DNA from: an uncultured Candidatus Sumerlaeota bacterium
GTDB lineage: Bacteria > Sumerlaeota > Sumerlaeia > MVZB01
Reading direction: 5' to 3'
DNA length: 64,000 nt
Assembly (NCBI GenBank): GCA_964473105.1
Contig: CAYYNQ010000097.1
Coordinates: 8,468 to 72,467 of the forward strand
Positions within the stretch are counted from its first letter, which is position 1; the number at the start of each line of letters is the position of its first letter. A program made the translations under genes and the position numbers. The notes under the pieces are model-generated. The model did not search any database. It saw nothing but the letters and a program-made list of their open reading frames with translations, and was not told the origin of the DNA. Below are positions 4,078 through 56,755 of the stretch, piece after piece.

Positions 4078-4133
4078 ATTGATTCTCCCGGTCACCCGGA
4101 GAAAAAACCCCAAATTATCCATCGATCCCTGTC

Positions 4134-4685: not shown

Positions 4686-4744
4686 TAAACTTTGGCCGGG
4701 GTGGCCCAGCAAGCTGAAAAGACGTCAGTATGGCTTGAAATCAG

Positions 4745-13389: not shown

Positions 13390-13729
13390 TATATTTCTCC
13401 TATTTCGCAGATGATCCGCACTAGGTTCGTTCACCCTATGGTGGCCTGGGTTGGCCGGGGGGTGAGCGGAAGCTGTATGCTTTGAAATGGAAATCGGGCC
13501 ATCGAAAGCTTTCCTGCCCCGGGATGGTCCGGTTCAGGTTCAAAGGGTTTACTCTCAGCTCCGCATATGCGGGGCACCCCTAGCGTGGACTCAAGGATAG
13601 TGATTCCAAAATATCTGCGCAAGATGAAAAATATGGGAGGCATCGCTGTATTCAGGTTTATGGTCGGGCTCCGGCATTTTTGATGGCTGTTGGGAAGGGA
13701 GCAGTGAGGGAATGGAACCAAGAGTCTAG

Positions 13730-14932: not shown

Positions 14933-14974
14933 ATCAGGCTATCTATCTGGCCGACCCGTCGCAGGCCCCGGGAA

Positions 14975-18620: not shown

Positions 18621-18684
18621 GCCGAAATGGTGTTCACGGTTGCGCCATTGAATGACAGGGCTGTCATGAGAATCCGTCACAGAT

Positions 18685-19863
18685 TCAATTTTGACCGGAC
18701 AAGAAATTTTGAATATTTTCAACGACGTAGTGTTGTTGAGACTCATTTAATTCGGGAAAGATCGGGAGTGCGAGTGCCTCCCGGCTAGCCTGTTCACTGA
18801 TGGGCATCATGCCTTTGCGGTAGCCGTGGTTCTTAAAGCAGGGCTGGAGGTGCAAGGGGAGTCCATAATATACATTGCAACCGATCCCGTTTTCCCTCAA
18901 GCAGGCCAAGAGTCCATCGCGTCTTTCCGGGTGCACGCGGATGACATACTGATGATACACATGGTTTTCAGAGATTGTCACAGCCGGGAATACGGTCGTC
19001 GGATCTAGCTGATCGGGGGATTGTGAACAGATGCCAGCCTCGCTGAGCAGCCGCCCATACCGGGCGGCATTCTCTGCCCTTGCCCGGCACCAGTCCTCCA
19101 GTAGAGGCAGTTTGACTCTGAGGACGGCAGCCTGCAGTGCGTCCAGTCGGGAATTGATTCCCAAAATCTCATGAATATACTGGCCGGTTTGGCCGTGGTG
19201 TCGCAACAGGCGCAGTTTCATACCCAGTTTCTCATCATGGCAGGTCATGAGGCCACCGTCCCCGAAACAACCTAGGTTTTTAGATGGAAAGAAACTGAAA
19301 CACCCGATATCACCCACTGTGCCGGCCTTTTTGCCATGCCAGGTTGCCCCAATTGCCTGGGCGGTGTCCTCAATTATTGCAATATCGTTCCCGACCTTCA
19401 GGTCCAGGAGTCTCTGCATATCGACACACTGGCCAAAAATATGGACGGGGATGATGACTCGCGTGCGGGGTGTGATCAGCGATTCAAGTAGACGGGTATC
19501 CATGTTGAAGCTGACCGGGTCAATATCACAGAAGACCGGTTTTAAGCCAAGGCGTACGATGGCTCCAACAGTTGCAAAAAAAGTGTAGGGGGATGTGATG
19601 ACCTCATCGCCAGGTTTCAAATCCAGGGCCATTAATGCGATTAGCAGTGCATCTGAACCTGAGGCGCAACCAATTGCATGAGATGAACCAAGCCATTCCG
19701 AGATCTCCTTTTCGAATAATTCCACCTCGGATCCCAAGACAAACCGCTGGGACTCAATAATACGCCGGACGGAAGATTCGATAGATTCCCTTATGGTCTC
19801 ATACTGTGATCCGAGATCCAGCATTTTGACGGAAGTGACTGGGTTGATTTGTTGTGAACTCAT
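18685..19863 (-). CDS. DegT/DnrJ/EryC1/StrS-family PLP-dependent sugar aminotransferase
   Basis: 'GSEVELFEKEISEWLGSSHAIGCASGSDAL' and 'FSFFPSKNLGCFGDGG' (PLP-lysine region). 392 aa. Confidence 0.85.
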   Translation of the reverse strand: MSSQQINPVTSVKMLDLGSQYETIRESIESSVRRIIESQRFVLGSEVELFEKEISEWLGSSHAIGCASGSDALLIALMALDLKPGDEVITSPYTFFATVGAIVRLGLKPVFCDIDPVSFNMDTRLLESLITPRTRVIIPVHIFGQCVDMQRLLDLKVGNDIAIIEDTAQAIGATWHGKKAGTVGDIGCFSFFPSKNLGCFGDGGLMTCHDEKLGMKLRLLRHHGQTGQYIHEILGINSRLDALQAAVLRVKLPLLEDWCRARAENAARYGRLLSEAGICSQSPDQLDPTTVFPAVTISENHVYHQYVIRVHPERRDGLLACLRENGIGCNVYYGLPLHLQPCFKNHGYRKGMMPISEQASREALALPIFPELNESQQHYVVENIQNFLSGQN

Positions 19864-28174: not shown

Positions 28175-28199
28175 GGTAAAACCGCGCCCCAACTCCGAC

Positions 28200-28345
28200 C
28201 TATACCAACCGGATTCCGACAATCAGCCGGCTCCCCGCGGGCACTCCCGTAACACAAGCTCCAAAACTTCTTAGGGCTGCTTCCGCCAGGACCTGACCCG
28301 GTTCGAAGCGGAACCTTGCTCGGGACCTTTGGATCGACGCCACTT
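28200..28345 (-). ncRNA. ffs: Signal recognition particle RNA (4.5S/ffs), boundaries approximate
   Basis: The minus-strand read of 28274-28301 is 'CCGGGTCAGGTCCTGGCGGAAGCAGCCC'. This matches the universally conserved SRP RNA domain IV ('GGUCAGGUCC-loop-GGAAGCAGCC') 20/20 in the two conserved arms, with a UGGC tetraloop. It lies in a 600-bp region with no credible ORF. Confidence 0.55.
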
Positions 28346-28554
28346 AACTGCCTTCCACCAACCAGTAAAAGCCTCGGAAGGGTATTCAGTCCTGCTAAGC
28401 GGATTGCAGGCTACAGGGCACCGCTAACTCCCCACCTAGCGCGGTTGACCCGATATCTTACATATTCGTCCCGGGGATGCAACGGTCTCGTTATCCGAAC
28501 CCTGATCGGGGTTGCCCCCCTGCATAAAACCAGAGGCCAAAGACCCATAACCGG

Positions 28555-33000: not shown

Positions 33001-33413
33001 TTTCCTGGGCATTCAAAGGTTCAGCCGGTTTTTTCGAACTTGTTTCAGTGCCGGTTTTCCTGTTGGTTTCCTGCCTTCATGTGGTCGCGAAACAGGCGTG
33101 CTCCAATGGTGTTCCGTCTGGCCTGTGGCCGGTCCGTTGGACGGCCGCGGGTGTCGTTTCCATGCCATTCCCTTCTTCGAAGGCTCCCATGGCATGGCAT
33201 TTATACCGATGATATCCTGTAGTTTATGCGATTCCCCGTTGACAGATCTGGGTCGTTATAAGAGAATGTGCCCGGATTCAATCTGAGATTATGGTTTAAT
33301 CGGACAAGTGACGTTGCGGATTTGGGCTTACCTGCGCGATGTCCTGTTTCCGTGGCGTTTACCGTGATCCGGATCTGGATTTCATCAGTTTGGGAAACAA
33401 GGGGGCAGTCGTG

Positions 33414-35609
33414 ATGGCTGCGGAAAAACAAGAACAATTGGGAAACGAATTCGAGGAATCTGGGAGCGATGTGTTCAAAGGGTCCTCTGCGGGTGAACTG
33501 GGGGCAACTTCGCCTCCCGGGCCCACAGCCGAGTATCAAGATGGGAATGTGGCGGACGATGAATACTTTGATCCCTCGGAGGTGGAATCCGCCCCCGATG
33601 AGATGGATGCCATGATGGATCAGTTTCTGGACCAGATGACCCCGAATGTCAAGCGGGGTCAGTTGATCCGGGTGCCGGTTGTTGCAGTGAAGAGCGATGG
33701 GATTCTCTTGGACGTTGGTGACAAGTCCGAAGGTTTTGTCCCGTTGAGGGAGGTGGAAGATGGCCGCGGTGATGTGACGGTTCAAGTGGGCGATGTCCTC
33801 GAAGTGATCATCAAGAACCAGGACCCGGAAACCGGACTGATCGGCCTGTCTTATCTTGAGGCAAAACGGCGGAAGGCGTGGCAGCATGCGGAGGACTGCT
33901 TCAAAAACAAAAAGCCCATCAACGGAAAGATCATCCGTACAGTCAAAGGCGGAGTTATCCTCGATATTGGGACGACCGCGTTTCTGCCAGCCTCGCAGGT
34001 CGACCTTATGCGCATTGAAGATTTTGAGGAACTGATTGGGCGGGAAGTTCAGGGATATGTCATCGAGTTCGAACCGGACAAGCGAAGGATCATTGTGTCC
34101 AGGCGAGCTTTGCTTGAGGAGGAGCGTGACAAGATTCGCGGCGAGATTCTCGGCAAGTTGGAGCTCGGCCAAGAACTGGATGTGAATGTGAAGCGACTTG
34201 TCAATTTTGGCGCCTTTGTTGATGTTCAGGGGCTGGACGGCCTGATTCCCCGTAGTGAGATCTCGTGGCAGCGTAGTGCGCGACCTGAGGAATATCTGAC
34301 TGTCGGGGAGACAGTCCGGATTCGTATAGTGGAGATCGACCGCAAAAAAGGCAAGATCACGCTTTCTAGAAAGCAGGCCATGTCAGATCCATGGCCTGCT
34401 GCGGAGGCCGACTATTCTATTGGGTCCAGGGTGAGCGGTAGGGTTGTGTCAATCACCAATTATGGTGCCTTTGTGCGTTTGCGGGAGGGGCTGGATGGCA
34501 TGGTGCACATATCTGACATGGCCTGGGACAGCCACGGAAGGAAACCCTCGGATTTTGTGGAGACCGGGGATGAAGTGGAAGTCCAAGTGCTTGCTCTGGA
34601 TTTGTCCGAGCGGAGGATTTCACTTGGTATGAAGCAGCTTGTTCCCGATTCATGGTCTGAGATGATCGAGCGTTACCCCAAGGGCAGTCGCTTCAAGGGC
34701 AAGGTTACCGGATTAACTCGATTCGGTGCTTTCGTTGAGTTGGAATCCGGTGTCGAGGGGATGGTACACATTTCCGACTTTTCTTGGGAGAAACGTATTG
34801 AACACCCCAAGGACGTTGTCAGCAGTGGTGATGAAATTGAGGTTTGTATCCTTTCTGTTGACCTGGAAAAGCGAAGGGTTTCACTTGGGGTCAAACAGCT
34901 TGTGAAGAGCCCCATGGAAAAGTTTCGGAAATCATTCAAGGCAGGAGACCTCGTCGAGGGCAAGGTTGTCCGGGTGAGTGACCAAGGCGCCTTCATTCAA
35001 CTAGCTGAGGGAGTGGAGGGTTTCATGCATGTTTCGCAGATTGACACAGACAGGGTCGAGAATCCCGCAGATATTCTGAAAGAGGGTGAGACGGTCCGCT
35101 CCAAGGTCACGAAGATCGAGCGGGGAAACAAGATTGCGCTTAGCCGCAAGGCGATGCTCAAGGCGCAGGAAAAGAAAACCATTTCCACATACATGAGATC
35201 CGGTTCCACAGAGGATAGCCTGCTGAATATGGGTGAACTTCTTGAGGATCTCCAGATCGAGGATGAACTAGGCCTTAGAAAATCCAAAACCGCGGAATCA
35301 GTGGGCCCGACTGAGGCAACCCCCTCGGATGATAATGGGAAAATATCCGCAGCTGGGAATCCATCCGTTGACCCTGTTCCCGGGTTTTCAGAAGATACAG
35401 CAGCACTCGACGCTGGAGCCGACCCTCGAGATCATGACAAACTGGTTGCTCAGCAGGCTCCCGATGAATTCGCCATGGACCAGTCCGATGAAAATCCTCC
35501 TTCTGTCATGGTGGGTGAATCTGGGGATTCGCCGGAATCTGAAGGTGCTGAATCCAACGGATCCGATATCACTCAATCCGAACATGACCCCTCCTCAACA
35601 GAAAACTGA
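33414..35609 (+). CDS. rpsA: 30S ribosomal protein S1 with acidic/low-complexity C-terminal extension
   Basis: Six tandem S1 domains (e.g. 'GAFVDVQGLDGLIPRSEISWQR', 'GAFVRLREGLDGMVHISDMAW', 'GAFVELESGVEGMVHISDFSW') followed by a D/E/S-rich tail of about 150 aa. ATG at 33414; the ORF is open from 33339. Confidence 0.85.
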   Translation: MAAEKQEQLGNEFEESGSDVFKGSSAGELGATSPPGPTAEYQDGNVADDEYFDPSEVESAPDEMDAMMDQFLDQMTPNVKRGQLIRVPVVAVKSDGILLDVGDKSEGFVPLREVEDGRGDVTVQVGDVLEVIIKNQDPETGLIGLSYLEAKRRKAWQHAEDCFKNKKPINGKIIRTVKGGVILDIGTTAFLPASQVDLMRIEDFEELIGREVQGYVIEFEPDKRRIIVSRRALLEEERDKIRGEILGKLELGQELDVNVKRLVNFGAFVDVQGLDGLIPRSEISWQRSARPEEYLTVGETVRIRIVEIDRKKGKITLSRKQAMSDPWPAAEADYSIGSRVSGRVVSITNYGAFVRLREGLDGMVHISDMAWDSHGRKPSDFVETGDEVEVQVLALDLSERRISLGMKQLVPDSWSEMIERYPKGSRFKGKVTGLTRFGAFVELESGVEGMVHISDFSWEKRIEHPKDVVSSGDEIEVCILSVDLEKRRVSLGVKQLVKSPMEKFRKSFKAGDLVEGKVVRVSDQGAFIQLAEGVEGFMHVSQIDTDRVENPADILKEGETVRSKVTKIERGNKIALSRKAMLKAQEKKTISTYMRSGSTEDSLLNMGELLEDLQIEDELGLRKSKTAESVGPTEATPSDDNGKISAAGNPSVDPVPGFSEDTAALDAGADPRDHDKLVAQQAPDEFAMDQSDENPPSVMVGESGDSPESEGAESNGSDITQSEHDPSSTEN

Positions 35610-37335
35610 TTCGGTCAAACTCGAACTGGTTGACGAGAACACTCTGGGAATTACGTTTGCCTATGACCGCAGATTAGTCCGGTTGATGCGTTGCCTGCGT
35701 GTACGCCGATGGAACAGAAAGGCAAAACGCTGGGAGACCCCGGTGTCCAACCTCGAACATGTCATGCGGATATTCAAATTATCACCCCCCGATCTTGACC
35801 GTGAAATTGGCGTGATCTGGAAGCGGCAGGCTGCTGGTGAACTGAGCGTAACCCTTGACCCCCTTTATGTTCGCATCAAAGGTAATGCTGCGGGAAGTTT
35901 TCCTGTTAACCTGGTTGATGAGGTGACGTCCTATCCGGTCCCTGGTCATCAATATTCACCTCGTTATCGCAAGGGCCAATGGGATGGAAGGCGCCGACTT
36001 TTCAATTCCAGGAAACTTGCCTTTCCGCGCGGCTTATGGATGAAGGTTCGGGAGGCACTTGAATCTGGTGGAGTCTCGAGAATTCATGTTGAGGATCAGG
36101 GTGAAACCGTCCCGCAAGGACCCACCCTTAGCGCCTGCGGAGTGCGCCATCAGCTTCGCGATTACCAGAAGGACGTGCTCAAGACCGCACTGGCCGCCCG
36201 GTCTGGGGTCATCCAGATGGCGACAGGTTCGGGGAAGACCCTGCTCGCCGCACATCTGATCCGGGGACTGGATCAGCCGACCTGTTTTTTTGTACATACT
36301 CGTGACCTGATGTATCAGGCGGCAGGGGTGTTCGATGATGAACTCGGAATCGAGGTAGGGAAGGTGGGTGATGGCCACGCATCGATTCGTCCGTTGACGG
36401 TCATGATGATACAGACCGGGATTCGGTGCCTAAGGGGTCTTGGAAAAGGGTCGCCGGGGGTTTCTGGGTTAATGGACCATGAGAATCAGAGCGAGGGTAT
36501 TGATGATGCAACACGCTTTGAGATCCGTGATCTGCTGTCGCGTGTTCGGGTAATTATCTTTGATGAATGCCACCATTTACCGGCATCGAGCTTTTACAGG
36601 GTCGCGATGGCCTGTAAATCGGCTTCTTATCGGTTTGGTCTTTCGGCCACGCCTTGGAGGGATGACGGCGAAGACATGTTACTGGAGGCAGCATTGGGCC
36701 CTAAATTAAGTTGTACCAATTGTTCATATTTGATATCCCGGGGATTTTTGGTCCGTCCACAGATTCAGATGAAATATGTCCAACCGGTTCATGAAAGCAA
36801 CTTTAAAGGGCGGGACTATCAGGATATTTACCGTGAACTCATCGTGGAAAATCATGAGAGAAATCGTGTGATCGCAATAGAGGCAGGGCAAAGCGCCGAT
36901 TCGGGCCTGTCGGTACTGATCCTCGTGAATCAGGTCAGGCATGGTGAGATCCTTTTGCCAAGTCTTCCAAATGCGGAGTTTATCCATGGATCCATTCCCG
37001 GGGAAAATCGAAAAAATGCTCTCAAAAGATTGGAACAGAAGTTGCAACCGGTTATGATAGCGACAACCCTTGCTGATGAAGGACTGGATATCCCCTCCTT
37101 GGATGTCCTGATTTTGGCCGGGGGCGGAAAATCGGCAACCCGTGCCTATCAACGGGTTGGTCGGGTTCTAAGGAGAGCACCCGGCAAAACACGTGCGCTG
37201 GTCCTTGACTTCATGGATGAAGGGCCATGGTTGAGACAGCACAGTCAGGCGAGGCTGGATCTGTACCGTGCCGAGCCGCAGTTTGATGTGGTAGTCGAGT
37301 CAACGAGCAGGAAGAATTTGCGTATCGATGTATGA
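35584..37335 (+). CDS. Superfamily-2 DEAD/DEAH-box helicase (COG1061/XPB-Res-like) with N-terminal extension of about 170 aa
   Basis: Motif I 'MATGSGKT', motif II 'IIFDECHH', motif III 'SATP', and a C-terminal helicase domain ('TTLADEGLDIPSLDVLILAGGGKS...RVGRVLR'). The start overlaps the rpsA 3' end by 26 nt. Confidence 0.7.
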   Translation: MTPPQQKTDSVKLELVDENTLGITFAYDRRLVRLMRCLRVRRWNRKAKRWETPVSNLEHVMRIFKLSPPDLDREIGVIWKRQAAGELSVTLDPLYVRIKGNAAGSFPVNLVDEVTSYPVPGHQYSPRYRKGQWDGRRRLFNSRKLAFPRGLWMKVREALESGGVSRIHVEDQGETVPQGPTLSACGVRHQLRDYQKDVLKTALAARSGVIQMATGSGKTLLAAHLIRGLDQPTCFFVHTRDLMYQAAGVFDDELGIEVGKVGDGHASIRPLTVMMIQTGIRCLRGLGKGSPGVSGLMDHENQSEGIDDATRFEIRDLLSRVRVIIFDECHHLPASSFYRVAMACKSASYRFGLSATPWRDDGEDMLLEAALGPKLSCTNCSYLISRGFLVRPQIQMKYVQPVHESNFKGRDYQDIYRELIVENHERNRVIAIEAGQSADSGLSVLILVNQVRHGEILLPSLPNAEFIHGSIPGENRKNALKRLEQKLQPVMIATTLADEGLDIPSLDVLILAGGGKSATRAYQRVGRVLRRAPGKTRALVLDFMDEGPWLRQHSQARLDLYRAEPQFDVVVESTSRKNLRIDV

Positions 37336-37855
37336 ACGGATCCTGACCTATCTCAATATCGCCCTAATCGTGCTTTGCGGCATTGCGATCTGGTATTTGT
37401 CAACCGAAACGTATACGAAACCCCGGGAAATAAGACTTGCTGAAATGCAGCTTGAACATATGGAGGTTGAGACAGGCTGGACGGAGTCGGATCCAGGGAA
37501 AAGGCCACCCTTGGTTCCAAGGCCGGCCATAACCCCCATAACACGTATGAATGCGATGAAGGAGTTGTATACACCGACGCCGACACCAACGCCGACACCA
37601 ACGCCACCACCAAAACCTCCACTACTTAAAGATCTGGTTTATGCATGGCGGTTAACTGCGATCAACAGCGAGACATCGATCGAGATTTTTGACGACAGGA
37701 GCAAGGAAACATTTGCAATGAACACCGGCGAATCGAGGAAACTAGCTGACAAGAAGGGGCAGGGTGAACATCTCGTTATTTTGGACAGTGTGTCAATGGA
37801 TGACTTGTGCGCAAAATTCACGTTTCTCGACCAGGAGCACAACCTTTGTTTCTGA
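37328..37855 (+). CDS. Hypothetical membrane-anchored protein with (Thr-Pro)n linker
   Basis: N-terminal TM 'LNIALIVLCGIAIWYL', linker 'TPTPTPTPTPTPPPKPP', and a C-terminal domain of about 80 aa. Its ATG overlaps the helicase stop by 8 nt (translational coupling). It lies immediately upstream of the secretin. Confidence 0.5.
   Translation: MYERILTYLNIALIVLCGIAIWYLSTETYTKPREIRLAEMQLEHMEVETGWTESDPGKRPPLVPRPAITPITRMNAMKELYTPTPTPTPTPTPPPKPPLLKDLVYAWRLTAINSETSIEIFDDRSKETFAMNTGESRKLADKKGQGEHLVILDSVSMDDLCAKFTFLDQEHNLCF
37571..37612 (+). repeat. Coding 12-nt tandem repeat (acgccgacacca x3, imperfect) encoding a (TP)n linker
   Basis: Read directly: 'acaccg acgccgacacca acgccgacacca acgccaccacca'. 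Confidence 0.7.
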
Positions 37856-37889
37856 TGATGGTTGAAACTTATCCGGAAAGGCTGAATGC

Positions 37890-40472
37890 ATGTATCAAGG
37901 GCTGATGGATATACGGTTCCTTTTTTTGATGCAGGTAACTCGTATGTGTCTCCTGCCATTTTTCCTGTGGCTTGTCCTGGGGGCTGCGGCTGGCCTGTCT
38001 GCAGAGGAGCCTGCGCCGGCTGTTCCGGTCATGCCGGCCGAGGATGTCCCGAGTTCGGCAACACTGGGGGGCGAGGAAGGTCTGGGTGAATCCGGAGTCA
38101 CCGAAACCCTGGCTGAGTTTACCTCCTCCAATGGAACTCCTGCGGGAGGCGGCGAGGACGTTATATCGAGCGGGGGTGAGCCCACGCAGGGGGAGGACAT
38201 GCCATTGATACGTCCTGAACTTCCCAAACTCACGCTAATTGTCAAGCAAATGGAAATCGACCTGATCACAGGCAGAATCCACAAACAGACTGGCATCAAT
38301 GTCAAGGCGATTGGAAACACCAAGTCCATCAAGATGGATCTGGTTGCTCAGGATGTGGACATTGAGAGCGTTCTGAACAAGATCACCGTTCCGAACCAAT
38401 GGAAATGGGTGAGATTTCAAGATGGGCATTATGAAATCATGGATCAACAGACCTTCACTGAGCGGATTACAGCCAATCAGGTCAAGCGGGTCAGTTTCAA
38501 GTTGAAACATATCGACGCGACCGAGCTCGAAAAGGTCGTCAGCCCAATCAATACACCCGAGGTCGGGGCTACGGCGGTTGATGTACGCACGAATACGCTG
38601 ATCGTGACCGATTTGCCTGACAAGCTTGCATTGATAGAGAGTATTGTCGCCGAGTATGACATCGCCCTGACCACGCGCGTATTCGAAATTCGGGATGCCG
38701 ATACCGAGGAGATTGCCGAGCGGTTTGAGAACGTGATGTCCGAATCGGCCGTCATTGAGGTTGATGCGTTGAATCATATCATCATTGTCAAGGACACCTT
38801 CGAGAAGATCCGGATTATGGAGCAGTTGATCGAGGTTTTTGACCGTGACCGAGATGTGCGCGTCTACAACTTCACCAATGTCGGGCTTGAGGGAGATGTC
38901 GCACTTGCAATTGTCGAGACCTTCCTTGAGCCTCTCGTGACCGAGGACGCACTGCTTGAGTATAACGAGGATTTGAACAAACTTCTGGTCCGTGATGTCA
39001 ACTCCGTGCACGCCAAGATCGAGGAGATTCTGCTTGCCTTGGATGAACCTCGCAAACAGGTCCTCGTCGAAGGGGAAGTGCTCTCGGTCGAGTTGAACGA
39101 GTCGTTCTCACTCGGTTCGGACTGGGTTTACTCACTGGGGCAGAGTATTCCACGGGATGGTCTCGGCATGGAACGAGCAACCTTGAGTCAGGATTTCATT
39201 GGCGGGACATCCCAGCCTGTCAATTCATCTGAAAATGGTGATACCGGGAGTAGTACGAGCAGCGGTGGAACAACGGACGCATCGGGTTTCAAGCTGTTCA
39301 CTCACAGCGACCGGGTGATCTACCAGTTGGAGGCGGCATTATCCGACAACCGGACGCGACTTCTGGCCCGGCCGCGTATCCTGATCGCTAACAATGAACT
39401 TGGACGTTTCGAGGTGGCCCGTAATGAGCCGATTCGCCAGACTTTCTTCAGTGGCAGCAATATGTCATCAGGATATAATAATAATTACCGTTCCTCCGGT
39501 CAGTCGCTAATCCCCACGGGTTTGATCATTGAGCTTACCCCCTTCATCAGCAACCGTGGGCTGATTGAAATGGAGGTTCAGTTTGAGAACAGTGTCCCAT
39601 TGATCGTCGAAGATATCGGCGATGGGAACCGTGGGGTCGGGACAACGGAGGAAACTGCTGAAACCTACCTCATCATTCCCGATGGTGAAACGAGGCTCAT
39701 CGGCGGATTGATTACGCAGGATACGGCTGAATCCGTTACCGGGATTCCGTTTCTAACGCGGATTCCTATTGTCGGTTATCTCTTCGGAAAGAAGACAACC
39801 GAGGAGACAAATCGAAACTTGCTGTTTTTCATGACACCTACGATCATCATCGAAGAACCGAAGAACAAGCTGCTCGTGGAGCCCGTCAATCTTATGGCCA
39901 AGCGCACCATGGCCCAGGATGAGACAGTCATGGTTCGCCCGGATGACCTCAATGAAATTCCCGAGGAACTTCTGCCCTACCTCGAGGATGTACGTAGTGG
40001 TGGTGCATGGCATTCAGGCGTTTCGGATACGGATTCGACGGCCACGCTCCAGATTGATCTGCCGACAACAACAACTGAAACCATAGGGATGGATCCCTCG
40101 GGCCTCGGTGCATCATTATTAAGGGATTCCGGATTTCTTGATCCCGGGCGGGGTGAATCGGAGTTAAAGGTCGGAGGGGCCATGCAGTATGTCAAATCCC
40201 AGGCTGGCCCGAGCGGAACATTCGGTAGCGGAAAGGCAAAAACCTCCCGATCCCGTTCTGGCGAGAAGGTCGATTATAGCAAGAAGGGGACAGGGATTAC
40301 CCCTCCCGAGGTCCGTGAACGCTTCAAGGCGGAAGAAAAAGCTCGGAATAGGAAAAAGAACAGAAGCCGGAAGAGACGGGCATCGCGCGGCGCGGGAGAG
40401 CGTGATGTCGATTTGATCGGCGGTAACCCGCCCAATACCCCACCGCCAACTCAGACCGAGACAAGTCAGTAA
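37890..40472 (+). CDS. Secretin (GspD/PilQ family) of a type II secretion or type IV pilus system, with long basic C-terminal tail
   Basis: Signal peptide 'MCLLPFFLWLVLGAAAGLSA'. N-domain-like repeats ('TNTLIVTDLPDKLALIESIV', 'LNHIIIVKDTFEKIRIMEQLIEVFD', 'NKLLVRDVNSVHAKIEEILLALD'). Secretin C-domain ('RLLARPRILIANNELGRFEV', 'LIGGLITQDTAESVTGIPFLTRIPIVGYLFG', 'LLFFMTPTII'). The C-terminal roughly 200 aa are Ser/Gly/Lys/Arg-rich. Confidence 0.8.
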   Translation: MYQGLMDIRFLFLMQVTRMCLLPFFLWLVLGAAAGLSAEEPAPAVPVMPAEDVPSSATLGGEEGLGESGVTETLAEFTSSNGTPAGGGEDVISSGGEPTQGEDMPLIRPELPKLTLIVKQMEIDLITGRIHKQTGINVKAIGNTKSIKMDLVAQDVDIESVLNKITVPNQWKWVRFQDGHYEIMDQQTFTERITANQVKRVSFKLKHIDATELEKVVSPINTPEVGATAVDVRTNTLIVTDLPDKLALIESIVAEYDIALTTRVFEIRDADTEEIAERFENVMSESAVIEVDALNHIIIVKDTFEKIRIMEQLIEVFDRDRDVRVYNFTNVGLEGDVALAIVETFLEPLVTEDALLEYNEDLNKLLVRDVNSVHAKIEEILLALDEPRKQVLVEGEVLSVELNESFSLGSDWVYSLGQSIPRDGLGMERATLSQDFIGGTSQPVNSSENGDTGSSTSSGGTTDASGFKLFTHSDRVIYQLEAALSDNRTRLLARPRILIANNELGRFEVARNEPIRQTFFSGSNMSSGYNNNYRSSGQSLIPTGLIIELTPFISNRGLIEMEVQFENSVPLIVEDIGDGNRGVGTTEETAETYLIIPDGETRLIGGLITQDTAESVTGIPFLTRIPIVGYLFGKKTTEETNRNLLFFMTPTIIIEEPKNKLLVEPVNLMAKRTMAQDETVMVRPDDLNEIPEELLPYLEDVRSGGAWHSGVSDTDSTATLQIDLPTTTTETIGMDPSGLGASLLRDSGFLDPGRGESELKVGGAMQYVKSQAGPSGTFGSGKAKTSRSRSGEKVDYSKKGTGITPPEVRERFKAEEKARNRKKNRSRKRRASRGAGERDVDLIGGNPPNTPPPTQTETSQ

Positions 40473-40684
40473 AATCAAAACATCACCCTGTGGTTTGGAC
40501 TGTGTGACCGATCACTGGGCAGATTGCAATTGTGAGTAAGCGGCAGGATGCCCTCTTGACCGATGATAGCAAAGCATTCTTGAATCGGCGATTGGATTGT
40601 GCCAACATGAACTGCCCTGCCCGTCAGGGCGGGTGGATCCGTTTTCTTCCACCCAATCATATCGGAACTAGAGGGGACAAGAGC

Positions 40685-41437
40685 ATGTCAGGTCATTCGA
40701 AATGGCATTCCATCCGGCACAAGAAAGCCATTGTCGATGCCAAGCGTGGTGCAAAATTCACCAAACTCATCAAGGAGCTGGTGGTTGCCGCCCGGATGGG
40801 TGGCAGTGATCCCGATGCCAACCCGCGGCTTCGGCTGGCGATCCAGAACGCCCGCGATATGAACATGCCGAAAGACAACATCGAGCGTGCGGTCAAGAAG
40901 GGTGCCGGTGAACTTGAAGGGGTTTCCTACGAGGACTTCCAATTTGAAGGATACGGACACGGCGGAGTTGCAATTCTTGTTGAGGGAACCACCGACAACA
41001 TGAACCGCACCGCGCCCGAGATGAGGCACCTCTTTAGTAAGCATGGCGGCAAGTTTGGTGAGCAGGGAAGTGTCAACTGGATGTTCAAGAAGAGGGGCGT
41101 TATCATGGCTCCGGCCGAGGGTATGGATGAAGAACAGGTTATGGAGGTTGCTATCGAGGCCGGGGCCGATGACCTGGAGAATGCAGAGGGCTACTTCAGG
41201 ATCCTAACCGAACCCGGAACTCAGGAGAATGTGCGCCAGGCCATTGAGGCGTCCGGGATCCGGGTTGAATCCTCGACCATGGAGAATATTCCCGATAACA
41301 CCATCGCGATCGGCGTCGATGATGCACGTAAACTCATGAAGCTCATCGAGTTCCTTGAGATACATGATGACGTGAGTTCTGTGTCTGCGAATTATGAGGT
41401 TGATGATGCTTTGATTGAGGAGTTGAGCGCCACCTGA
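40685..41437 (+). CDS. yebC: YebC/PmpR-family DNA-binding transcriptional regulator
   Basis: 'MSGHSKWHSIRHKKAIVDAKRGAKFTKL' is the canonical N-terminus. 250 aa. The ORF is open from 40532. Confidence 0.9.
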   Translation: MSGHSKWHSIRHKKAIVDAKRGAKFTKLIKELVVAARMGGSDPDANPRLRLAIQNARDMNMPKDNIERAVKKGAGELEGVSYEDFQFEGYGHGGVAILVEGTTDNMNRTAPEMRHLFSKHGGKFGEQGSVNWMFKKRGVIMAPAEGMDEEQVMEVAIEAGADDLENAEGYFRILTEPGTQENVRQAIEASGIRVESSTMENIPDNTIAIGVDDARKLMKLIEFLEIHDDVSSVSANYEVDDALIEELSAT

Positions 41438-44993: not shown

Positions 44994-45680
44994 TCATTGC
45001 GGGTGGGTATTGGTGCGGCCCTGGACAAGACGTACGGTTCCATCCGCGTAGAGGGCATGCTCGATATCCAGATCAGTTCCCCATGGATAGCCGAAGTCTG
45101 CCGGGTAGTTCGGGAACAATCCGCCGTAAAAACCATCCAAGGGGCCAAGGTAAAGATCTCTCACCATCCACACGTTGCCTTCCATGATATTTCCGGCACC
45201 GCCTTCGTGCCCCCCTGAGCTGACTGCCGAACTGTTATATGCGTAACGGAAATTATGGTAGCGTGGATGACCGCCACGTATTGTCTCGCCGTCTGGGTAG
45301 AGTCTCAGGTAATGGGGATTGAACATGGTATGCCAGTCACCTAGGTATTTCAGTTCAAGCAGGATCCAGGGCAGGCCATCCCAGGATCCCCCCGCAGCTG
45401 GGGCATTGCCGGTTTGAAAATATTCCGGACCGCTCGATGAAAACGGACCGGCTTCGTGGTCTGCGGGTGGCAGGGTATTGTGATCGACCTGATAGGTCTG
45501 TAGCGCAATGGCGATCGTGTGCAGGTTGCCTGCATTGGCAGCGCGGAGGCCGCGTTCCCGGGCGTCGTGGAAATTGACAACCGCGACGGCTGCCAGGATT
45601 CCGATGATCATTACGACCACCAGGAGTTCGATCAGCGTGACCCCCCTCATATCATCTGGTTTGTGGCAGGTTTCTGGCAA
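44994..45680 (-). CDS. Prepilin-type N-terminal cleavage/methylation domain protein (DUF1559-like pseudopilin)
   Basis: 'RGVTLIELLVVVMIIGILAAVAVVNF' prepilin leader/TM; 228 aa. The likely start is the internal Met at 45650. Confidence 0.8.
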   Translation of the reverse strand: MPETCHKPDDMRGVTLIELLVVVMIIGILAAVAVVNFHDARERGLRAANAGNLHTIAIALQTYQVDHNTLPPADHEAGPFSSSGPEYFQTGNAPAAGGSWDGLPWILLELKYLGDWHTMFNPHYLRLYPDGETIRGGHPRYHNFRYAYNSSAVSSGGHEGGAGNIMEGNVWMVRDLYLGPLDGFYGGLFPNYPADFGYPWGTDLDIEHALYADGTVRLVQGRTNTHPQ

Positions 45681-45829: not shown

Positions 45830-47194
45830 TTATCGATAACCTGTCCAGGCACGGCTCGTGTTTGCCGTCGGCAACGTGCTTGTGAAATGGAGCTGGCCCT
45901 CGGTCAGGCTGATACTGTCCTCCCATACGACATATATTTCGTCGCATCCACCCATCGCTATGACCGGACGGTTCCAAGTTCCGGTGAGTTCCTCAGTCAG
46001 GTCGACCTCATGCTCGACGAAATTTTCTTGGGGATCATAACGGATATATCGGACACTTCTCCGGGGTGTATTGGCACTGACATACACCATGTGGAATTTT
46101 CCGTTGGAATCAACGACCGCTGAGGGCTGTTGCTGAAGGCCATCCTCGTTTGTCACCCGGATCTCCGTATCCAGAATGGATGAATCAACCGTATATTTCT
46201 GGATGATGATTTCGTCACTGCCCGTCGCGATACGGTCAACAAACAACAACCAACGATTATCGTTTCCGGGTTCCTCGACCCAGCGCGGAGGATCAAAAAA
46301 ACCGCTGACGTTGGACCGGTGCAGGCCCATCGCAATCCAGTTTTTGGCTTCGGGGTCATAACGTCCGGTATATAGGCTGGCCGGGGCACCCGTTGTGCCC
46401 GTCACCCAGCACAAGTGCAGGATGCCATTTGGATCGGCCGAGATATCCGGGACTGTGAACGGTTGGTTTTCGTCACCGGCTGCCCGGTCCGCAGGGGTTG
46501 TTAGACGCAGGCTGGCCATAGAGGGTGGCAGCGCTGGCCATGAACCGTCAGGGTTGCTCAGCCCCAGCATAATCTCGGACTTGTCCACATCCCAGTGAAA
46601 ATCATACCAGGTCAGTGCAATTCGTCCGTCGCCCAGGAGTGCCGTCCGGGGATTGAAACCGTTGTCACCGTTCGAGACACTGCCCGAGTCTGTCAGGCGC
46701 AGGTTGTTCATGGCAAGGCCCTGGCTTGTGAAACGGTCGGTGAATATCTCCTGGTTGTCGTTCCAGCCCGCCCCGGCGGATCCGTGTCGGTGATCGTGCC
46801 AGAAAACCTGTAGTTCCTGACTGGAATCAACGATGATGGAAGGGATGCGTCCCCCCAAGCTTTCGCCCGTGACGGCCATCGATTGATCGACTCTTTGACG
46901 GGGTAGCCATCCTGTCATCGTTTTCCATTGCCGGATAAAAACTCGACTGGGGTCACTGATGGTGGTCTGTTCGAGTCCTTGCCAGTAGACAAGCGTGAGT
47001 CCGTGGGCCGGGGTCCAGATCAGCGTGCCCTGGGGGTTTCGCGCAAGCCGGTTGCGTTCGGTCGGGTCGTCAGGCGAGGTGAACTCGACAACCGGGCGGA
47101 AATTTATTTGCGCGCAGGTTCCCCGGATCATGGTCATGAAGATCAGTAGGCAAACAAGTAAATGCCCTTTGATAGATATGATCTTCCATGACAT
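45830..47194 (-). CDS. Secreted hypothetical protein (beta-rich, possible beta-propeller)
   Basis: Signal peptide 'MSWKIISIKGHLLVCLLIFMTMIRGTCAQ' and a beta-rich domain of about 430 aa with W/G/D-rich repeats. The ORF is open to 47224. Confidence 0.5.
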   Translation of the reverse strand: MSWKIISIKGHLLVCLLIFMTMIRGTCAQINFRPVVEFTSPDDPTERNRLARNPQGTLIWTPAHGLTLVYWQGLEQTTISDPSRVFIRQWKTMTGWLPRQRVDQSMAVTGESLGGRIPSIIVDSSQELQVFWHDHRHGSAGAGWNDNQEIFTDRFTSQGLAMNNLRLTDSGSVSNGDNGFNPRTALLGDGRIALTWYDFHWDVDKSEIMLGLSNPDGSWPALPPSMASLRLTTPADRAAGDENQPFTVPDISADPNGILHLCWVTGTTGAPASLYTGRYDPEAKNWIAMGLHRSNVSGFFDPPRWVEEPGNDNRWLLFVDRIATGSDEIIIQKYTVDSSILDTEIRVTNEDGLQQQPSAVVDSNGKFHMVYVSANTPRRSVRYIRYDPQENFVEHEVDLTEELTGTWNRPVIAMGGCDEIYVVWEDSISLTEGQLHFTSTLPTANTSRAWTGYR

Positions 47195-47228
47195 GTGGAA
47201 TGATCTTTCCCTTGGATCCTTCATGGGG

Positions 47229-48551
47229 TTATTCCAAGATGAAGCTTGTCAGGCAGATCGGTACGGTTACGCCGAAGGTTTGCAACCCGCTGGGTCCGCC
47301 GAAACTCGCCGTGTGCACGTAAACCCCGCCGACTTTATCGATGGTAACTCCCCCGGTATAGGAGCCATTGATCTGATCAAGTACATTGCCGTTGACCGGG
47401 TCAATAATGTAGAGGTTGTTGGCCCCGGTTGCATAAATGATGTCATTGGCAGCTGCCATATAATTTCGGAACAAGTAACCGAAACTGACGATCGTGGCCT
47501 TGAATATCTCGTCACCAGTGTTACGGTGGAATGCCCATAGCAGGGCATCACCGGTCCCGGCAAACCCTCCGCCCCAGACATAAACCGCGTTCCCGATCAC
47601 CAGTGGCGGGTTGTCGCTGATAGGTGCGACAACCTGCCATTCAAGTTCACCCGTCAGAGCATCCGCGCAGACCAGTATTCCCAGAGTGTCGGTGAAGTTG
47701 TGTCCCACTGCGTAGAGCCGTTTGTCCTCAACGGTCATGGAGCCGGTCAGGATATACGGATCTACCGTCCATGGCGCAGTCGGGTCGATATTGCTTTGCC
47801 AGATGGGCGCGCCCGTCGCTGCATCGTAGCAGATCACATTGTCCGGACCGGCCGTTGTGAAGATACTTGAAGGGCTTCCTGCAAGGAATGGTGGTGTGGC
47901 TGTCCCGGGTCCACGGTCATGCCTGAACCAGGCGACCTCCCCGGTAACAAGATCGAGTGCAACGGTTTGCTTGGAATCGTTGGTGAATCCGCCGTAGGTT
48001 TCGATAAATGCCATCCCTTCGCCGATCTGGGGTGAGGCGTTGACAAAATCAAAATCGGTCAGCCCAGGGGTTGTATTGGTATTGTCGATCACGGTCGACC
48101 AGATAATTTTTCCGTCCGCCTGATCGAGCTTGTAGACGGTGCGTCCTGTAGCGTAGACAAGTGCATTATCGGCATCATCGATGACAACGCCGGTTGATGA
48201 CTGGAACGGAAGGGACAGTCCTTGGTCAAGCGGTGGCGACCGCCAGGTCAATTCTCCGGTCCGGGCGTGCAGAGCAATAACCATCACGGCAGTTGTCGGG
48301 TTGGCAGTGTGTACCGGGCTGTAGATATAAGGGTCCGATACGGTAACCCGTGCATTGGAGACGATGTCGAGGTCCGGTCGAGACCACAGGCCCCCGCTAC
48401 TGAAGCTGGTGAGTTGCGCAGGGATGTCAACCAAGGCGTTATTTCCGGGGGTGCGGTGGTTGGAGTGCCACGCATTTTGTGCTTGGAGCATGGTCACGGA
48501 GAGGATGACAGCCAAACAGGTTGCCAATCGGGGTGCAAAGGTCTTCATCAT
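47229..48551 (-). CDS. PQQ-like beta-propeller repeat protein (BamB/PilY1-C-like), secreted
   Basis: Signal peptide 'MMKTFAPRLATCLAVILSVTMLQAQ'. Repeated 'A-x-D-x-x-T/G-G-x-x-x-W' blades ('YKLDQADGKIIWST', 'ALDLVTGEVAWFR', 'CYDAATGAPIWQS', 'CADALTGELEWQV'). Confidence 0.7.
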   Translation of the reverse strand: MMKTFAPRLATCLAVILSVTMLQAQNAWHSNHRTPGNNALVDIPAQLTSFSSGGLWSRPDLDIVSNARVTVSDPYIYSPVHTANPTTAVMVIALHARTGELTWRSPPLDQGLSLPFQSSTGVVIDDADNALVYATGRTVYKLDQADGKIIWSTVIDNTNTTPGLTDFDFVNASPQIGEGMAFIETYGGFTNDSKQTVALDLVTGEVAWFRHDRGPGTATPPFLAGSPSSIFTTAGPDNVICYDAATGAPIWQSNIDPTAPWTVDPYILTGSMTVEDKRLYAVGHNFTDTLGILVCADALTGELEWQVVAPISDNPPLVIGNAVYVWGGGFAGTGDALLWAFHRNTGDEIFKATIVSFGYLFRNYMAAANDIIYATGANNLYIIDPVNGNVLDQINGSYTGGVTIDKVGGVYVHTASFGGPSGLQTFGVTVPICLTSFILE

Positions 48552-49122
48552 GTGATTCCACGCATCCAGTCAGGAGATCATGATCTTTTTCCGGAATGGG
48601 GATCCGGGCGGTTCACGGCCCGGGACTTCGGGACGAGATCTGGATCAATGACCAGAGGCCCCATTCCCCGGACAGAAATGCTTGCGCTGAGTAAATCGTG
48701 GCAGTGGAAAAGGGTGTCGAGATTTCCGGAACAAGACCACTCATCCGCTGGCCGGTTAGCCTACGTTAGACGGATGAAAACTGTCTGATTGAGCCGGATA
48801 CCGCTGTCCTCTTAACACACGAAAAAAACAGGGCAACAGGCTTCCGTACGCCGGTCTTCTGGCTTCCGGATCATCCTACCGGCCGTCCCTTCCCGGTAAT
48901 ATTTTACCAGTGGTTCTGACGACTTTCGTCCCCGGTCACAGCGGCGTGTCCGCGGTGGTTTTGCACCACCTTCCCTTACACGCACGGAAGTCAACATATG
49001 TCCGGTGACATACTAACCACGGAGGCAGGACGGAGTCAACTGGTTGTTTTTTGCATAAGCGCGAGCGCTCGATATTGTGGAGGCACACCCCTATTTTTCT
49101 TTTGCGGAGGGGCTACGGGGGG

Positions 49123-49128
49123 TATAAT
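49123..49128 (+). promoter_or_regulatory. Putative -10 element (TATAAT) for tRNA-Pro
   Basis: TATAAT at 49123-49128, 23 bp upstream of the tRNA 5' end. A weak -35-like 'TTTGCG' lies 16 bp upstream of the -10. Confidence 0.4.
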
Positions 49129-49150
49129 GTAATCCCTGTGTCTGCCTGGG

Positions 49151-49226
49151 TTAAAGGGTCGTCGGGGTGTAGCGCAGTTGGTAGCGTGCACGGTTCGGGA
49201 TCGTGAGGTCGCTGGTTCAAGTCCAG
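49151..49226 (+). tRNA. tRNA-Pro (anticodon CGG), CCA encoded
   Basis: Folded manually. Acceptor CGGGGTG/CACCCCG, D-arm GCGC-AGTTGGTA-GCGT, anticodon stem CACGG/TCGTG with loop TTCGGGA (anticodon CGG), T-arm GCTGG-TTCAAGT-CCAGT, discriminator A, then CCA. 76 nt. Confidence 0.9.
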
Positions 49227-49330
49227 TCACCCCGACCACTTTGCCCATCTTTTTAACCAACTCTTCGCCGCTGCTGGATATTTGAAGATGGTAAACGTTC
49301 TGGGGGCAGGTCAATCGCCGACAGGTCGTC

Positions 49331-49996
49331 CTATTGATCATATCCGACGTAAGTGTTTCCCTTTCCACCGACAAAACCAATACCTCCAACCCAATGGATA
49401 TCGCCATTACTGATGGTGCCGTTGGTCGGGTCATAGATCGTGCTGCGGTCGTGAGCCCAGACGCTCTGATTCGGACCGGGTGAGGTAAACCACCAGCCTT
49501 CATACTGTTCCCGCCGAATGGCAGGGCGCGTGTAGCCGAATATCGCAGTATGGGTCAGGTCATAACTCAGCAGGACTGCAAGATCCTTGATCGACTCAAA
49601 ATGATGGGCGGCAACCCCTGCCCAGAAGGGGTCGTAGGGAATATCTGATATGTATGACACGGGGGTGGTGAGTTGGCTTCCTATCATGCGGGCGATGGTT
49701 CCATCCCGTAGCAGCATTTTCAGATGCCCTCCGGTGCCGGCGGAGTTTGTCGGTTCAGGTTCAGGCCAGGCGGGGTTGAGATGACGATTATTATCAACGC
49801 GGTAAATCTCCATAGCCACGACGATGCTGCGAATATCGGTCATCAGTCGGCTTACCTTTGACCGCGTTTGTGCTTCCAGAAAATTGGGCACGGCAATCGC
49901 TGCCAGGATTGTGATGATCGCCACGACGATTAAAAGCTCAATGAGGGTAAAAGCCTTTTTTATTTTTAGTCCTTCCAACCTGAAATATGGGCTCAA
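49331..49996 (-). CDS. Prepilin-type N-terminal cleavage/methylation domain protein (DUF1559-like), paralog of 12688-13389
   Basis: 'AFTLIELLIVVAIITILAAIAVPNFLEAQTRSKVSR' is nearly identical to the N-terminus of the 12688 gene. Both also share a C-terminal 'TIYDPTNGT' block. Confidence 0.8.
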   Translation of the reverse strand: MSPYFRLEGLKIKKAFTLIELLIVVAIITILAAIAVPNFLEAQTRSKVSRLMTDIRSIVVAMEIYRVDNNRHLNPAWPEPEPTNSAGTGGHLKMLLRDGTIARMIGSQLTTPVSYISDIPYDPFWAGVAAHHFESIKDLAVLLSYDLTHTAIFGYTRPAIRREQYEGWWFTSPGPNQSVWAHDRSTIYDPTNGTISNGDIHWVGGIGFVGGKGNTYVGYDQ

Positions 49997-56748: not shown

Positions 56749-56755
56749 ATGCGTC

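Follow-up and report, generated by a model that had tools for sequence, protein, structure and literature searches.

Type II secretion systems (T2SS) and type IV pili each have a protein that ties the secretin pore to the inner membrane, GspC in the former and PilP in the latter; GspC has a TM helix, a Pro-rich linker and an all-β HR domain in addition to its PDZ domain, and PilP is a 7-strand sandwich (PMC3169554). Phage T4 UvsW, archaeal and eukaryotic XPB (Rad25) and E. coli RadD are known SF2 helicases, and ComFA, the DEAD-box helicase of Gram-positive competence, is another SF2 ATPase acting on DNA.

In the window -- the whole 64,000-nucleotide stretch from an uncultured Candidatus Sumerlaeota bacterium that was analysed here -- a helicase and a secretin lie in a single run of genes, arranged head to tail on the + strand in the order rpsA, a 583-aa SF2 helicase, a 175-aa protein here called X and an 860-aa secretin. 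As the earlier note had recognized, this is not a standard T2SS or type IV pilus layout; that note went on to liken the last three genes to DNA-uptake machinery. Our analysis makes it probable that the region consists instead of two unrelated functional units, rpsA-helicase and X-secretin, which were joined once by rearrangement, and the trio of helicase, X and secretin has the look of an accident of gene order, not of a new machine for DNA uptake.

The first gene, rpsA (33339..35609, + strand), encodes a 756-aa ribosomal protein S1 with six S1 domains (Pfam S1 x6, E 3.7e-93) and long acidic extensions at both its N- and C-terminus. The helicase ATG at 35584 precedes the rpsA TGA (35607-35609), giving the 26-nt overlap described earlier; there is no alternative in-frame start ahead of the conserved N-terminal block, and the public NCBI record P0014 is an identical 583-aa helicase product (100%). 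The reported 8-nt overlap at the next junction was also found, X starting at 37328 and the helicase stop lying at 37333-37335 (overlap ATGTATGA). X and the secretin are adjacent, as had been claimed, though the gap between the X end at 37855 and the secretin ATG at 37890 is 34 nt and not 35 bp. Bacterial genes on one strand often overlap by a few nucleotides, which is unremarkable alone; what goes beyond chance here is the conservation of the helicase-X-secretin order, not the overlaps themselves.

Of the window's ORFs that are 150 aa or longer, all but a few (e.g. those at 56582-57421 and 59763-60617) were scanned with Pfam. Among the ORFs scanned there is no GspE/PilB, GspF/PilC, PilM/N/O, PilT, ComEA or ComEC, in agreement with the earlier observation that no pilus ATPase or ComEC lies nearby, nor is there a comFC or dprA. 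With no ATPase, platform or GspL/M, they do not make up a complete T2SS or type IV filament locus; three orphan prepilin-type genes are the only filament components seen.

Using Pfam, profile searches of PDB sequences, and an AF2 model with Foldseek, the 583-aa protein encoded at 35584..37335 (+ strand) has been identified as a UvsW/XPB-like SF2 DNA helicase by both profile and fold. It consists of a putative HARP-like N-terminus (about aa 12-65), UvsW_N (aa 113-156), ResIII/DEAD (aa 189-357) and Helicase_C (aa 439-531), and its core carries the GSGKT (Walker A) and DECHH motifs. The family profile matches T4 UvsW first among PDB sequences (2OCA, E 1.7e-45), then XPBII, XPB and RadD, and T4 UvsW is also the top Foldseek match (E 1.8e-24) of the AF2 model, which has a pLDDT of 84. 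UvsW_N scores 25.6-27.5 bits against a cut-off of 25.3 and is detected in 12 of 12 orthologues, and HARP matches the N-termini of 8 of the 12 (best E 2.3e-4) and is precomputed for P0093 and P0124, though the window helicase itself is unmatched at E<=1. Scores at the equivalog level lie far below the cut-offs, at 66.9 bits against 610 for XPB and 55.2 against 720 for RadD. The window helicase resembles UvsW, XPB and RadD in having a UvsW_N domain followed by RecA-like lobes with GSGKT and DECHH motifs, but is only about 21% identical to them and has an extra, putative HARP-like module; it is also chromosomal, vertically inherited and adjoins rpsA, with no Bax1-like or TFIIH-like partner nearby. 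The suggestion in the earlier note of a ComFA-type enzyme finds no support in these profiles and folds: ComFA is absent from the 21 NCBIfam matches, the N-terminal domains are different, and the conserved neighbour is rpsA, with no comFC or comEC alongside. The orthologues were recovered in a contig search using the orthologue-specific N-terminal domain alone; a separate paralogous helicase family, 25-29% identical, accounts for most of the matches listed in the other genome-contig scan.

The 860-aa protein encoded at 37890..40472 (+ strand) belongs to the secretin superfamily, having both the pore domain (Pfam Secretin, 1.4e-32, 113 bits) and Secretin_N repeats (2e-17, 63.6 bits). A signal peptide and N-terminal domains are followed by the Secretin_N repeats from aa 202, the pore at aa 485-653 and a low-complexity tail of about 200 aa with a basic stretch. 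Its best NCBIfam equivalog score, for GspD, is 197.2 bits against a cut-off of 351, and that for PilQ is 148.2 against 284; helicase-linked secretins are 22-26% identical to E. coli GspD and HofQ. An STN/N0 domain, the site at which GspC and PilP dock, scores 32.5 bits, above the cut-off, in the L004 orthologue and below threshold in those of L089, L091 and L099, and is undetected in the window secretin. The window protein shares the pore domain, the Secretin_N repeats and the signal peptide with GspD and PilQ, a resemblance that, judging by its orthologues, may extend to an STN/N0-type domain. It differs from them in its basic-stretch tail and in that its gene follows rpsA and a helicase gene and is not part of a gsp or pil operon.

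Protein X (37328..37855, + strand) is a predicted bitopic membrane protein, with an AF2 model of pLDDT 78. Its N-terminal TM helix (aa 2-26, 37331..37405, + strand; pLDDT 88-95) is hydrophobic, is kept in position in all homologues and has only about 4 cytoplasmic residues ahead of it. This is followed by a disordered linker (aa 50-99; pLDDT <50 over aa 50-75) with the hallmark of the family, a (Thr-Pro)6 run (37571..37606, + strand): residues T82-P91 show little or no variation among 16 sequences, and in a set of 97 the prolines P85, P87 and P89 are conserved at 90% or more. The C-terminal domain (aa 100-175, 37625..37852, + strand) is modelled as all-β, with seven strands between aa 107 and 174 (pLDDT 90-93), and is presumed to be the part that docks on the secretin. 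There is no lipobox, and Cys is not conserved. About 260 cluster representatives have been collected for the family, uniformly about 170 aa long and none of them annotated.

No match to X was found in Pfam, NCBIfam or PADLOC, or for 16 members in Pfam even at E<=10; profiles built from 16 and from 97 sequences find no GspC or PilP chain among PDB sequences, hhalign against E. coli GspC and HofP gives a probability of about 1% or less, and Foldseek gives no significant fold match. Judged by its sequence, X is a new element, its family lacking a counterpart in Pfam, NCBIfam and the PDB. The possibility that its distant homologues are artefacts of the Thr-Pro run was rejected, in that the C-terminal domain alone scores 31-56 bits; a profile of only this domain finds operon-type homologues (L179 at 56.5 bits, P0012 at 36 bits), and the L179 protein scores 92 bits against the full profile.

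These operon-type homologues show where X and the secretin are found in other members of the group. In other Sumerlaeia contigs the pair ends a complete operon of the order gspE-F-H-(pseudopilins)-K-L-M-X-secretin. The order in L006 and L007 is GspE, GspF, GspH-like, pseudopilins, GspK, a PilM/PilN fusion, GspM-like, X and secretin; the L006 contig breaks off no more than 184 aa into the gene that follows X, which leaves the secretin there unconfirmed. L177 and L179 have the same order. The window secretin is about 35% identical over about 580 aa to the operon-type secretins of L007 and L177. L007 also carries an extra secretin-like gene, encoding a Secretin_N-only protein.

Since X and the secretin follow gspL-gspM at the end of the operon, X occupies the slot that belongs to GspC or PilP elsewhere, its gene lying just upstream of the secretin gene and after homologues of GspL/GspM (PilM/N/O) in L007, L177 and L179, and in L006 as far as the contig reaches; in the window, adjacency to the secretin is the one feature of this slot that holds. 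The predicted architecture also agrees: a membrane anchor at the N-terminus is joined by a flexible linker rich in Pro to a small periplasmic domain that is all-β. This is the published plan of GspC minus the PDZ, and the seven predicted strands equal the number in the PilP sandwich (PMC3169554). Another likeness is that the X gene moves together with the secretin gene. X differs from GspC in being much shorter and in having no PDZ or coiled-coil domain, from PilP in having a TM helix and not a lipid anchor, and from both in its nearly invariant (Thr-Pro)n run and, in the clade that has the trio, in being encoded away from the rest of the machine. The earlier proposal of a PilP- or GspC-like secretin partner is backed by position and architecture, with no likeness seen in sequence and no significant match in Foldseek, and from position and architecture X appears to fill the GspC/PilP connector role in Sumerlaeota secretion or pilus machines. 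If so, it would add a third way, unrelated in sequence, to link the pore with the inner membrane, and naming the family would improve the annotation of these uncultured, chitin-degrading bacteria.

An alternative, which we consider unlikely, is that X is no connector of this type but a factor for the assembly or stability of the secretin (pilotin-like, or like Thermus PilW) or a platform accessory of the GspN type. The dissimilarity to GspC, PilP and HofP in sequence and Foldseek comparison would fit this, as would the short length and missing PDZ, and in some classical T2SS operons it is gspN that follows gspM. With no lipobox, however, X is not an outer-membrane lipoprotein pilotin; its TM helix, Pro-rich linker and small all-β domain fit the GspC plan (PMC3169554), the order L-M-X-D mirrors pilM/N-O-P-Q, and when the pair moved, X went with the secretin and did not stay behind with gspL-gspM.

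When relatives were searched for the three-gene arrangement, as the earlier note had proposed, the order helicase-X-secretin was found in at least 7 distinct lineages (the window, L001, L002, L004, L089, L091/L098 and L099), and in L095 the start of X is present behind the helicase before the contig ends. Across these lineages identity drops to 47% for the helicase and about 30% for X. The helicase stop overlaps the X start in five of the seven lineages, by 8, 19, 19, 4 and 4 nt, and gaps of 24 and 74 nt are seen in the other two; the exact overlap is not conserved, while the tight spacing is. Within this clade the trio is never broken and is more stable than its surroundings, remaining intact where rpsA has been lost upstream (L091, L098), where two genes lie between rpsA and the helicase (L004) and where yebC-ruvC does not follow (L099). 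Selection for co-expression would also produce such persistence despite the breaks in the flanks.

In the helicase tree and again in the X tree, every copy that belongs to the linked arrangement falls into a single clade, and the linked secretins group together in the secretin tree; since each tree puts the linked copies in one clade, the X-secretin pair was relocated or duplicated just once. The relocated pair could in principle be a duplicated, specialised paralogue serving a second filament system or another cargo, with another X-secretin pair staying in the gspE...M operon, but we regard this as unlikely. The separation of linked and operon-type copies into distinct clades in the X and secretin trees is as expected for such a paralogue but equally so for relocation followed by vertical descent, and while the Secretin_N-only protein shows that extra secretin-like genes occur in the group, and the type IV pilus genes reported in all Sumerlaeota MAGs surveyed (PMC8092238) mean that more than one system may need a pore, no genome has been seen with both arrangements and the linked secretins keep the domain plan and length of the operon-type ones. 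A search for GspL-like proteins gave 23 matches, none of them on contigs known to carry the trio, and turned up no gspE...M operon in genomes of the trio clade.

The linkage does not extend to all relatives, a finding that by the earlier note's own account would refute its reading: rpsA-helicase occurs with no secretin in L009, L097, L101, L102, L106, L014 and L093, and X-secretin with no helicase in L006, L007 and L177. The gene directly upstream of the helicase orthologues is rpsA in about 20 loci from three clades, making rpsA-helicase an old pair with rpsA as the ancestral upstream neighbour; a HARP/UvsW-like helicase has been associated with rpsA more widely, and for longer, than with the secretin. 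Downstream, the partners vary: SppA (Peptidase_S49) in L097, L101 and L102, a 400-aa membrane protein with a 4-nt overlap with the helicase in L011-L013, small TM proteins in L093 and a convergent pabB in L009. Tight, even translationally coupled, neighbourhoods kept across about 50% protein identity can thus stem from a single relocation, and outgroup contexts are needed before function is read into them.

These contexts weigh against the idea of a DNA-uptake or export module, in which the secretin would pass DNA, X would bridge to the inner membrane and the helicase would pull or process the DNA as an analogue of ComFA, its products perhaps going on to YebC/RuvC. In favour of it are the conservation and tight coupling of the trio in one clade, where it outlasts rearrangement of its flanks, the presence of ruvC behind it in most members, the DNA-acting type of the helicase, and the part that secretins of this superfamily play elsewhere in the uptake of DNA, E. 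coli HofQ being annotated as a DNA utilization protein; all the same, we think such a module very improbable. Outside the clade the helicase keeps rpsA and has unrelated downstream partners, X-secretin occurs in complete T2SS-like operons with no helicase, the L099 trio is without yebC-ruvC, the helicase has no ComFA match, and com genes are found neither among the window ORFs scanned, where pilT and dprA are also missing, nor in the 174 related loci probed with the window's neighbours. X, moreover, has almost no cytoplasmic portion, and with only those few residues it offers no obvious surface to a cytoplasmic helicase. A true working partnership, for example with the helicase as motor or processing enzyme for DNA uptake or release via a type II secretion-like pore, would explain why the three genes have stayed together, stop codon overlapping start codon, through rearrangements on either side, but seems to us just as improbable, and a mechanistic link between the helicase and X-secretin is probably absent.

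An old recombination operon of helicase, yebC and ruvC later invaded by X-secretin was rejected: in the outgroups, the 8-10 kb around the helicase contain neither yebC nor ruvC, and in L099 the trio stands without them. A defence or restriction helicase was rejected as well: PADLOC gives partial matches to the SF2 core only (PbeA, about 90 bits), and in all loci the neighbours are housekeeping genes, with no sign of the clustering with restriction-modification genes that the earlier note had raised. In L004, SLFN_AlbA_2 and HNH genes have been inserted downstream of rpsA and ahead of the helicase.

According to the proposal of two units joined once, the first would provide a cytoplasmic DNA translocase of the UvsW/XPB type, with an N-terminus of the fork-binding type (HARP-like plus UvsW_N), whose most likely task is the remodelling of branched DNA, for instance stalled forks or R-loops. 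The second would supply the part at the outer membrane of a machine that resembles type II secretion (a type IV filament machine), X being anchored in the inner membrane by its single helix and reaching across the periplasm by its disordered Thr/Pro linker; its β-domain may dock on the N0/STN part of the secretin, which would tie the pore to a GspL/GspM-like platform. In the ancestor of one Sumerlaeia clade, X-secretin would have left, or been copied from, the 3' end of a gspE-F-H-...-K-L-M operon and landed directly behind the helicase, where transcription from the rpsA promoter now probably covers it and where its lack of an own promoter would keep it.

The trio is likely to be co-transcribed. 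A promoter-like site, TTGACA-17-GAGAAT, lies upstream of rpsA (33239..33267, + strand); it matches the consensus at 10 of 12 positions, is the best promoter match within 31-43 kb and is preceded by a terminator-like hairpin that includes a run of T (33005-33024) and lies just 3' of nfeD. This candidate site is a possible start of a transcription unit running from rpsA to the secretin, and a second terminator-like hairpin (40617..40646, + strand), identified like the promoter by consensus, its 8-bp stem including 5 G-C pairs and its T tail being weak, is its possible end; promoter and terminator matches in the region are no more numerous than in shuffled controls. The hairpin falls between the secretin stop and the probable true start of yebC at about 40685, the YebC Pfam domain beginning at residue 56 of the GTG-started ORF.

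Behind rpsA (33339-35609, forward strand) lie three closely packed ORFs on the same strand, as the earlier note had described: that of a 583 aa helicase, whose ATG at 35584 stands 26 nt before the rpsA stop; that of a 175 aa bitopic membrane protein at 37328-37855, here called X, whose ATG begins an 8-nt overlap with the end of the helicase ORF (ATGTATGA); and, after a gap of 34 nt (one base off the 35 claimed), that of an 860 aa secretin at 37890-40472. The helicase start matches that of a public 583 aa protein, P0014, which is 100% identical. Judged by its named homologues, the window belongs to Candidatus Sumerlaeota/Sumerlaeia (formerly BRC1). Using Pfam, exbB-exbD-nfeD have been identified upstream of the four genes and yebC-ruvC-purN downstream; a consensus scan placed a promoter-like site before rpsA and terminator-like hairpins on either side of the four genes, in weak agreement with co-transcription. 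The rpsA product is unusually long (756 aa, with six S1 domains), with extensions of about 95 aa at the N-terminus and about 130 aa, acidic and of low complexity, at the C-terminus; the helicase start falls within the latter. The longest yebC ORF, 40532-41437, begins with a GTG at 40532; its YebC domains are found only from residue 56, a terminator-like hairpin (40617-40636) lies inside its N-terminal extension, and translation probably begins instead at the ATG near 40685.

The helicase contains UvsW_N (aa 113-156), ResIII and Helicase_C domains according to Pfam; UvsW_N was found in the N-termini of all 12 orthologues and a HARP domain in 8 of them. With a 17-sequence helicase family profile, the top match among PDB sequences was phage T4 UvsW (E 1.7e-45), followed by XPBII, archaeal XPB/Rad25 and RadD, and Foldseek gave the same ranking for the AlphaFold2 model (pLDDT 84), with 2OCA at E 1.8e-24. 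The NCBIfam matches, all sub-threshold, were to XPB, RadD and dnd-type models, with no ComFA among them, and PADLOC gave partial matches to the SF2 core only. The protein is read as a cytoplasmic DNA translocase of UvsW/XPB type with a putative branched-DNA-binding front end, and the suggestion of a ComFA-like helicase serving DNA uptake is not borne out.

No match to X was detected in Pfam, NCBIfam or PADLOC. Its AlphaFold2 model (pLDDT 78) has four parts: a transmembrane helix (aa 2-26), then another helix (aa 33-49), a segment modeled as disordered that contains TPTPTPTPTPTP (aa 50-99), and a confidently modeled all-β domain of seven strands (aa 107-174); only about 4 residues are cytoplasmic. 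This is the plan of GspC -- a short cytoplasmic tip, one transmembrane helix, a linker rich in Pro and a domain of all-β structure -- minus the PDZ domain that GspC also carries (PMC3169554). A word-index search gave only 13 relatives of X, and an exhaustive profile search yielded 260 cluster representatives with E<=1e-3, of which 152 reach E<=1e-10. Almost all of them are 165-200 aa long and align end to end. The Thr-Pro run (residues 82-93; window 37571-37606) is nearly invariant across the family and might give false homology, so the profile was rebuilt with nothing but the C-terminal domain; distant members are recovered even then, including P0012 (36 bits), P0011 (31 bits) and the X of locus L179 (56.5 bits). 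Such constancy, seen even at about 20% overall identity, is not usual where a linker need only be flexible, and the run might serve as a stiff polyproline-II spacer or as a tract for O-glycosylation.

Four relatives of X, at loci L006, L007, L177 and L179 of other Sumerlaeia contigs, lie in complete type II secretion-like operons. The order in L006 and L007 is GspE, GspF, GspH-like, pseudopilins, GspK, a GspL-like PilM+PilN fusion, GspM-like, X and secretin, though in L006 the gene that follows X is cut off by the contig end within its first 184 aa, a fragment with a sub-threshold STN match only. L177 has GspH...GspK, GspL-like, a 191 aa protein, X and secretin, and L179 has GspE, GspF, ..., GspK, GspL-like, a 195 aa protein and X, where the contig ends. 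This L-M-X-D order resembles pilM/N-O-P-Q and retains the classical gspC-gspD adjacency. The window secretin shares about 35% identity, along some 580 residues, with the operon-type secretins of L007 and L177, as against 22-26% with E. coli GspD and HofQ. GspC and PilP dock on the STN/N0 domain of secretins; a domain of this type passed the threshold in the orthologue from L004 and fell short of it in three others. Given this operon position, the GspC-like plan and the secretin kinship, X and its secretin form the outer end of a T2SS-like apparatus, in which X most likely connects the secretin pore to the inner-membrane platform through a putative docking contact. Tests for homology between X and GspC or PilP were negative, so the claim is limited to X working like them; the PilP-like guess of the earlier note finds support in position and architecture, not in homology. 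The alternative to a connector, that X is a secretin accessory of another kind, is weighed separately and is rather unlikely. Residues 660-860 or so of the window secretin (39870-40472) form a low-complexity C-terminal tail of about 200 aa with a strongly basic stretch (...KARNRKKNRSRKRRASR...); orthologous tails are also long and poorly conserved, that of L099 being Pro-rich. Just downstream of the L007 secretin, a second protein (14869-15981, 370 aa) has Secretin_N without the pore domain.

Helicase loci were drawn from GTDB genomes, JGI metagenomes (searched with the orthologue-specific N-terminal domain only) and exact look-ups, and 174 loci were probed with the window's neighbor proteins. 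In orthologues at least 47% identical, the helicase is directly followed by X and the secretin (the window, L001, L002, L004, L089, L091/L098 and L099); in L095 the start of X follows and the contig then ends. Those at 41-45% identity (L009, L093, L097, L101, L102, L106, L011-L014) have no X-secretin in the downstream sequence, about 8-10 kb for most. There the helicase is followed by the signal peptide peptidase gene sppA (Peptidase_S49) in L097 (3823-4836), L101 (7057-8022) and L102 (11737-12699), loci of a sister clade with the order rpsA-helicase-sppA, the first two of which have sppA overlapping the stop of the helicase; by a 400 aa membrane protein with a 4-nt overlap in L011-L013; by small transmembrane proteins in L093; and by convergent pabB in L009. 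Helicase and secretin thus occur apart in relatives (L009, L093, L097 and others as against L007 and L177), which is what the earlier note had said would refute its proposal. Immediately upstream, rpsA is found in about 20 loci from three helicase clades, and its linkage to the HARP/UvsW-like helicase is more widely conserved and older than that of the secretin; rpsA-helicase pairs were seen in the window (33339-37335), L009, L014, L089, L095-L104, L106, L108 and L109.

Neighbor-joining trees of helicase and of X each gather all the linked copies into a single clade that leaves out the unlinked or operon-type ones, and the linked secretins also cluster together in the secretin tree. Under the simplest history, X-secretin would have been relocated or duplicated once, landing behind a pre-existing rpsA-helicase pair. 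The arrangement probably represents two unrelated units joined once and retained for expression; that the linked X-secretin is instead a specialized paralogue is improbable. What is new here is the X family, together with the splitting of the operon. Within the linked clade nothing in the neighborhood is as stable as the helicase-X-secretin trio: L091 and L098 have lost the upstream rpsA, with a divergent SpoU methylase there, and retain helicase-X-secretin-yebC-ruvC; L099 retains rpsA through secretin, followed by yqeY instead of yebC-ruvC; and L004 has SLFN_AlbA_2 and HNH genes between rpsA and helicase. In 5 of 7 lineages there is an overlap between the stop of the helicase and the start of X, which fits co-transcription and possibly translational coupling, without in itself showing a shared mechanism. 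True cooperation of helicase and secretin, which this persistence and overlap would favor, is very doubtful, as X leaves so little in the cytoplasm and no ATPase, platform, pilT, comEA or comEC gene was detected among the window ORFs scanned. The L004 genes (3533-5818), SLFN_AlbA_2/HATPase_c_4 and an HNH nuclease, with weak PADLOC matches to pAgo-associated and PtuB/ZorE HNH models, look like a small defense-type insertion.

Elsewhere in the window, a cobalamin riboswitch (48832-49000, reverse strand, 99 bits) lies upstream of three reverse-strand genes encoding a PQQ_2/BamB-like β-propeller (47229-48551), a 464 aa protein without Pfam match (45830-47224) and a prepilin-type protein (44994-45680); L002 has a similar set downstream of its trio, and these genes may work as a system for B12 capture. 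Three orphan reverse-strand genes (12688-13434, 44994-45680 and 49331-49996), scattered away from any assembly genes, have the N-terminal methylation motif of prepilins. An ORF at 49036-49503 (reverse), antisense to tRNA-Pro(CGG) (49163-49238, forward) where they overlap, is probably spurious. An 856 aa ORF without Pfam match (16176-18746, reverse) lies within a glycosyltransferase and sugar-aminotransferase cluster (13.7-25.5 kb), and a large bacterial SRP RNA is found at 28182-28444 (reverse, 153.6 bits).
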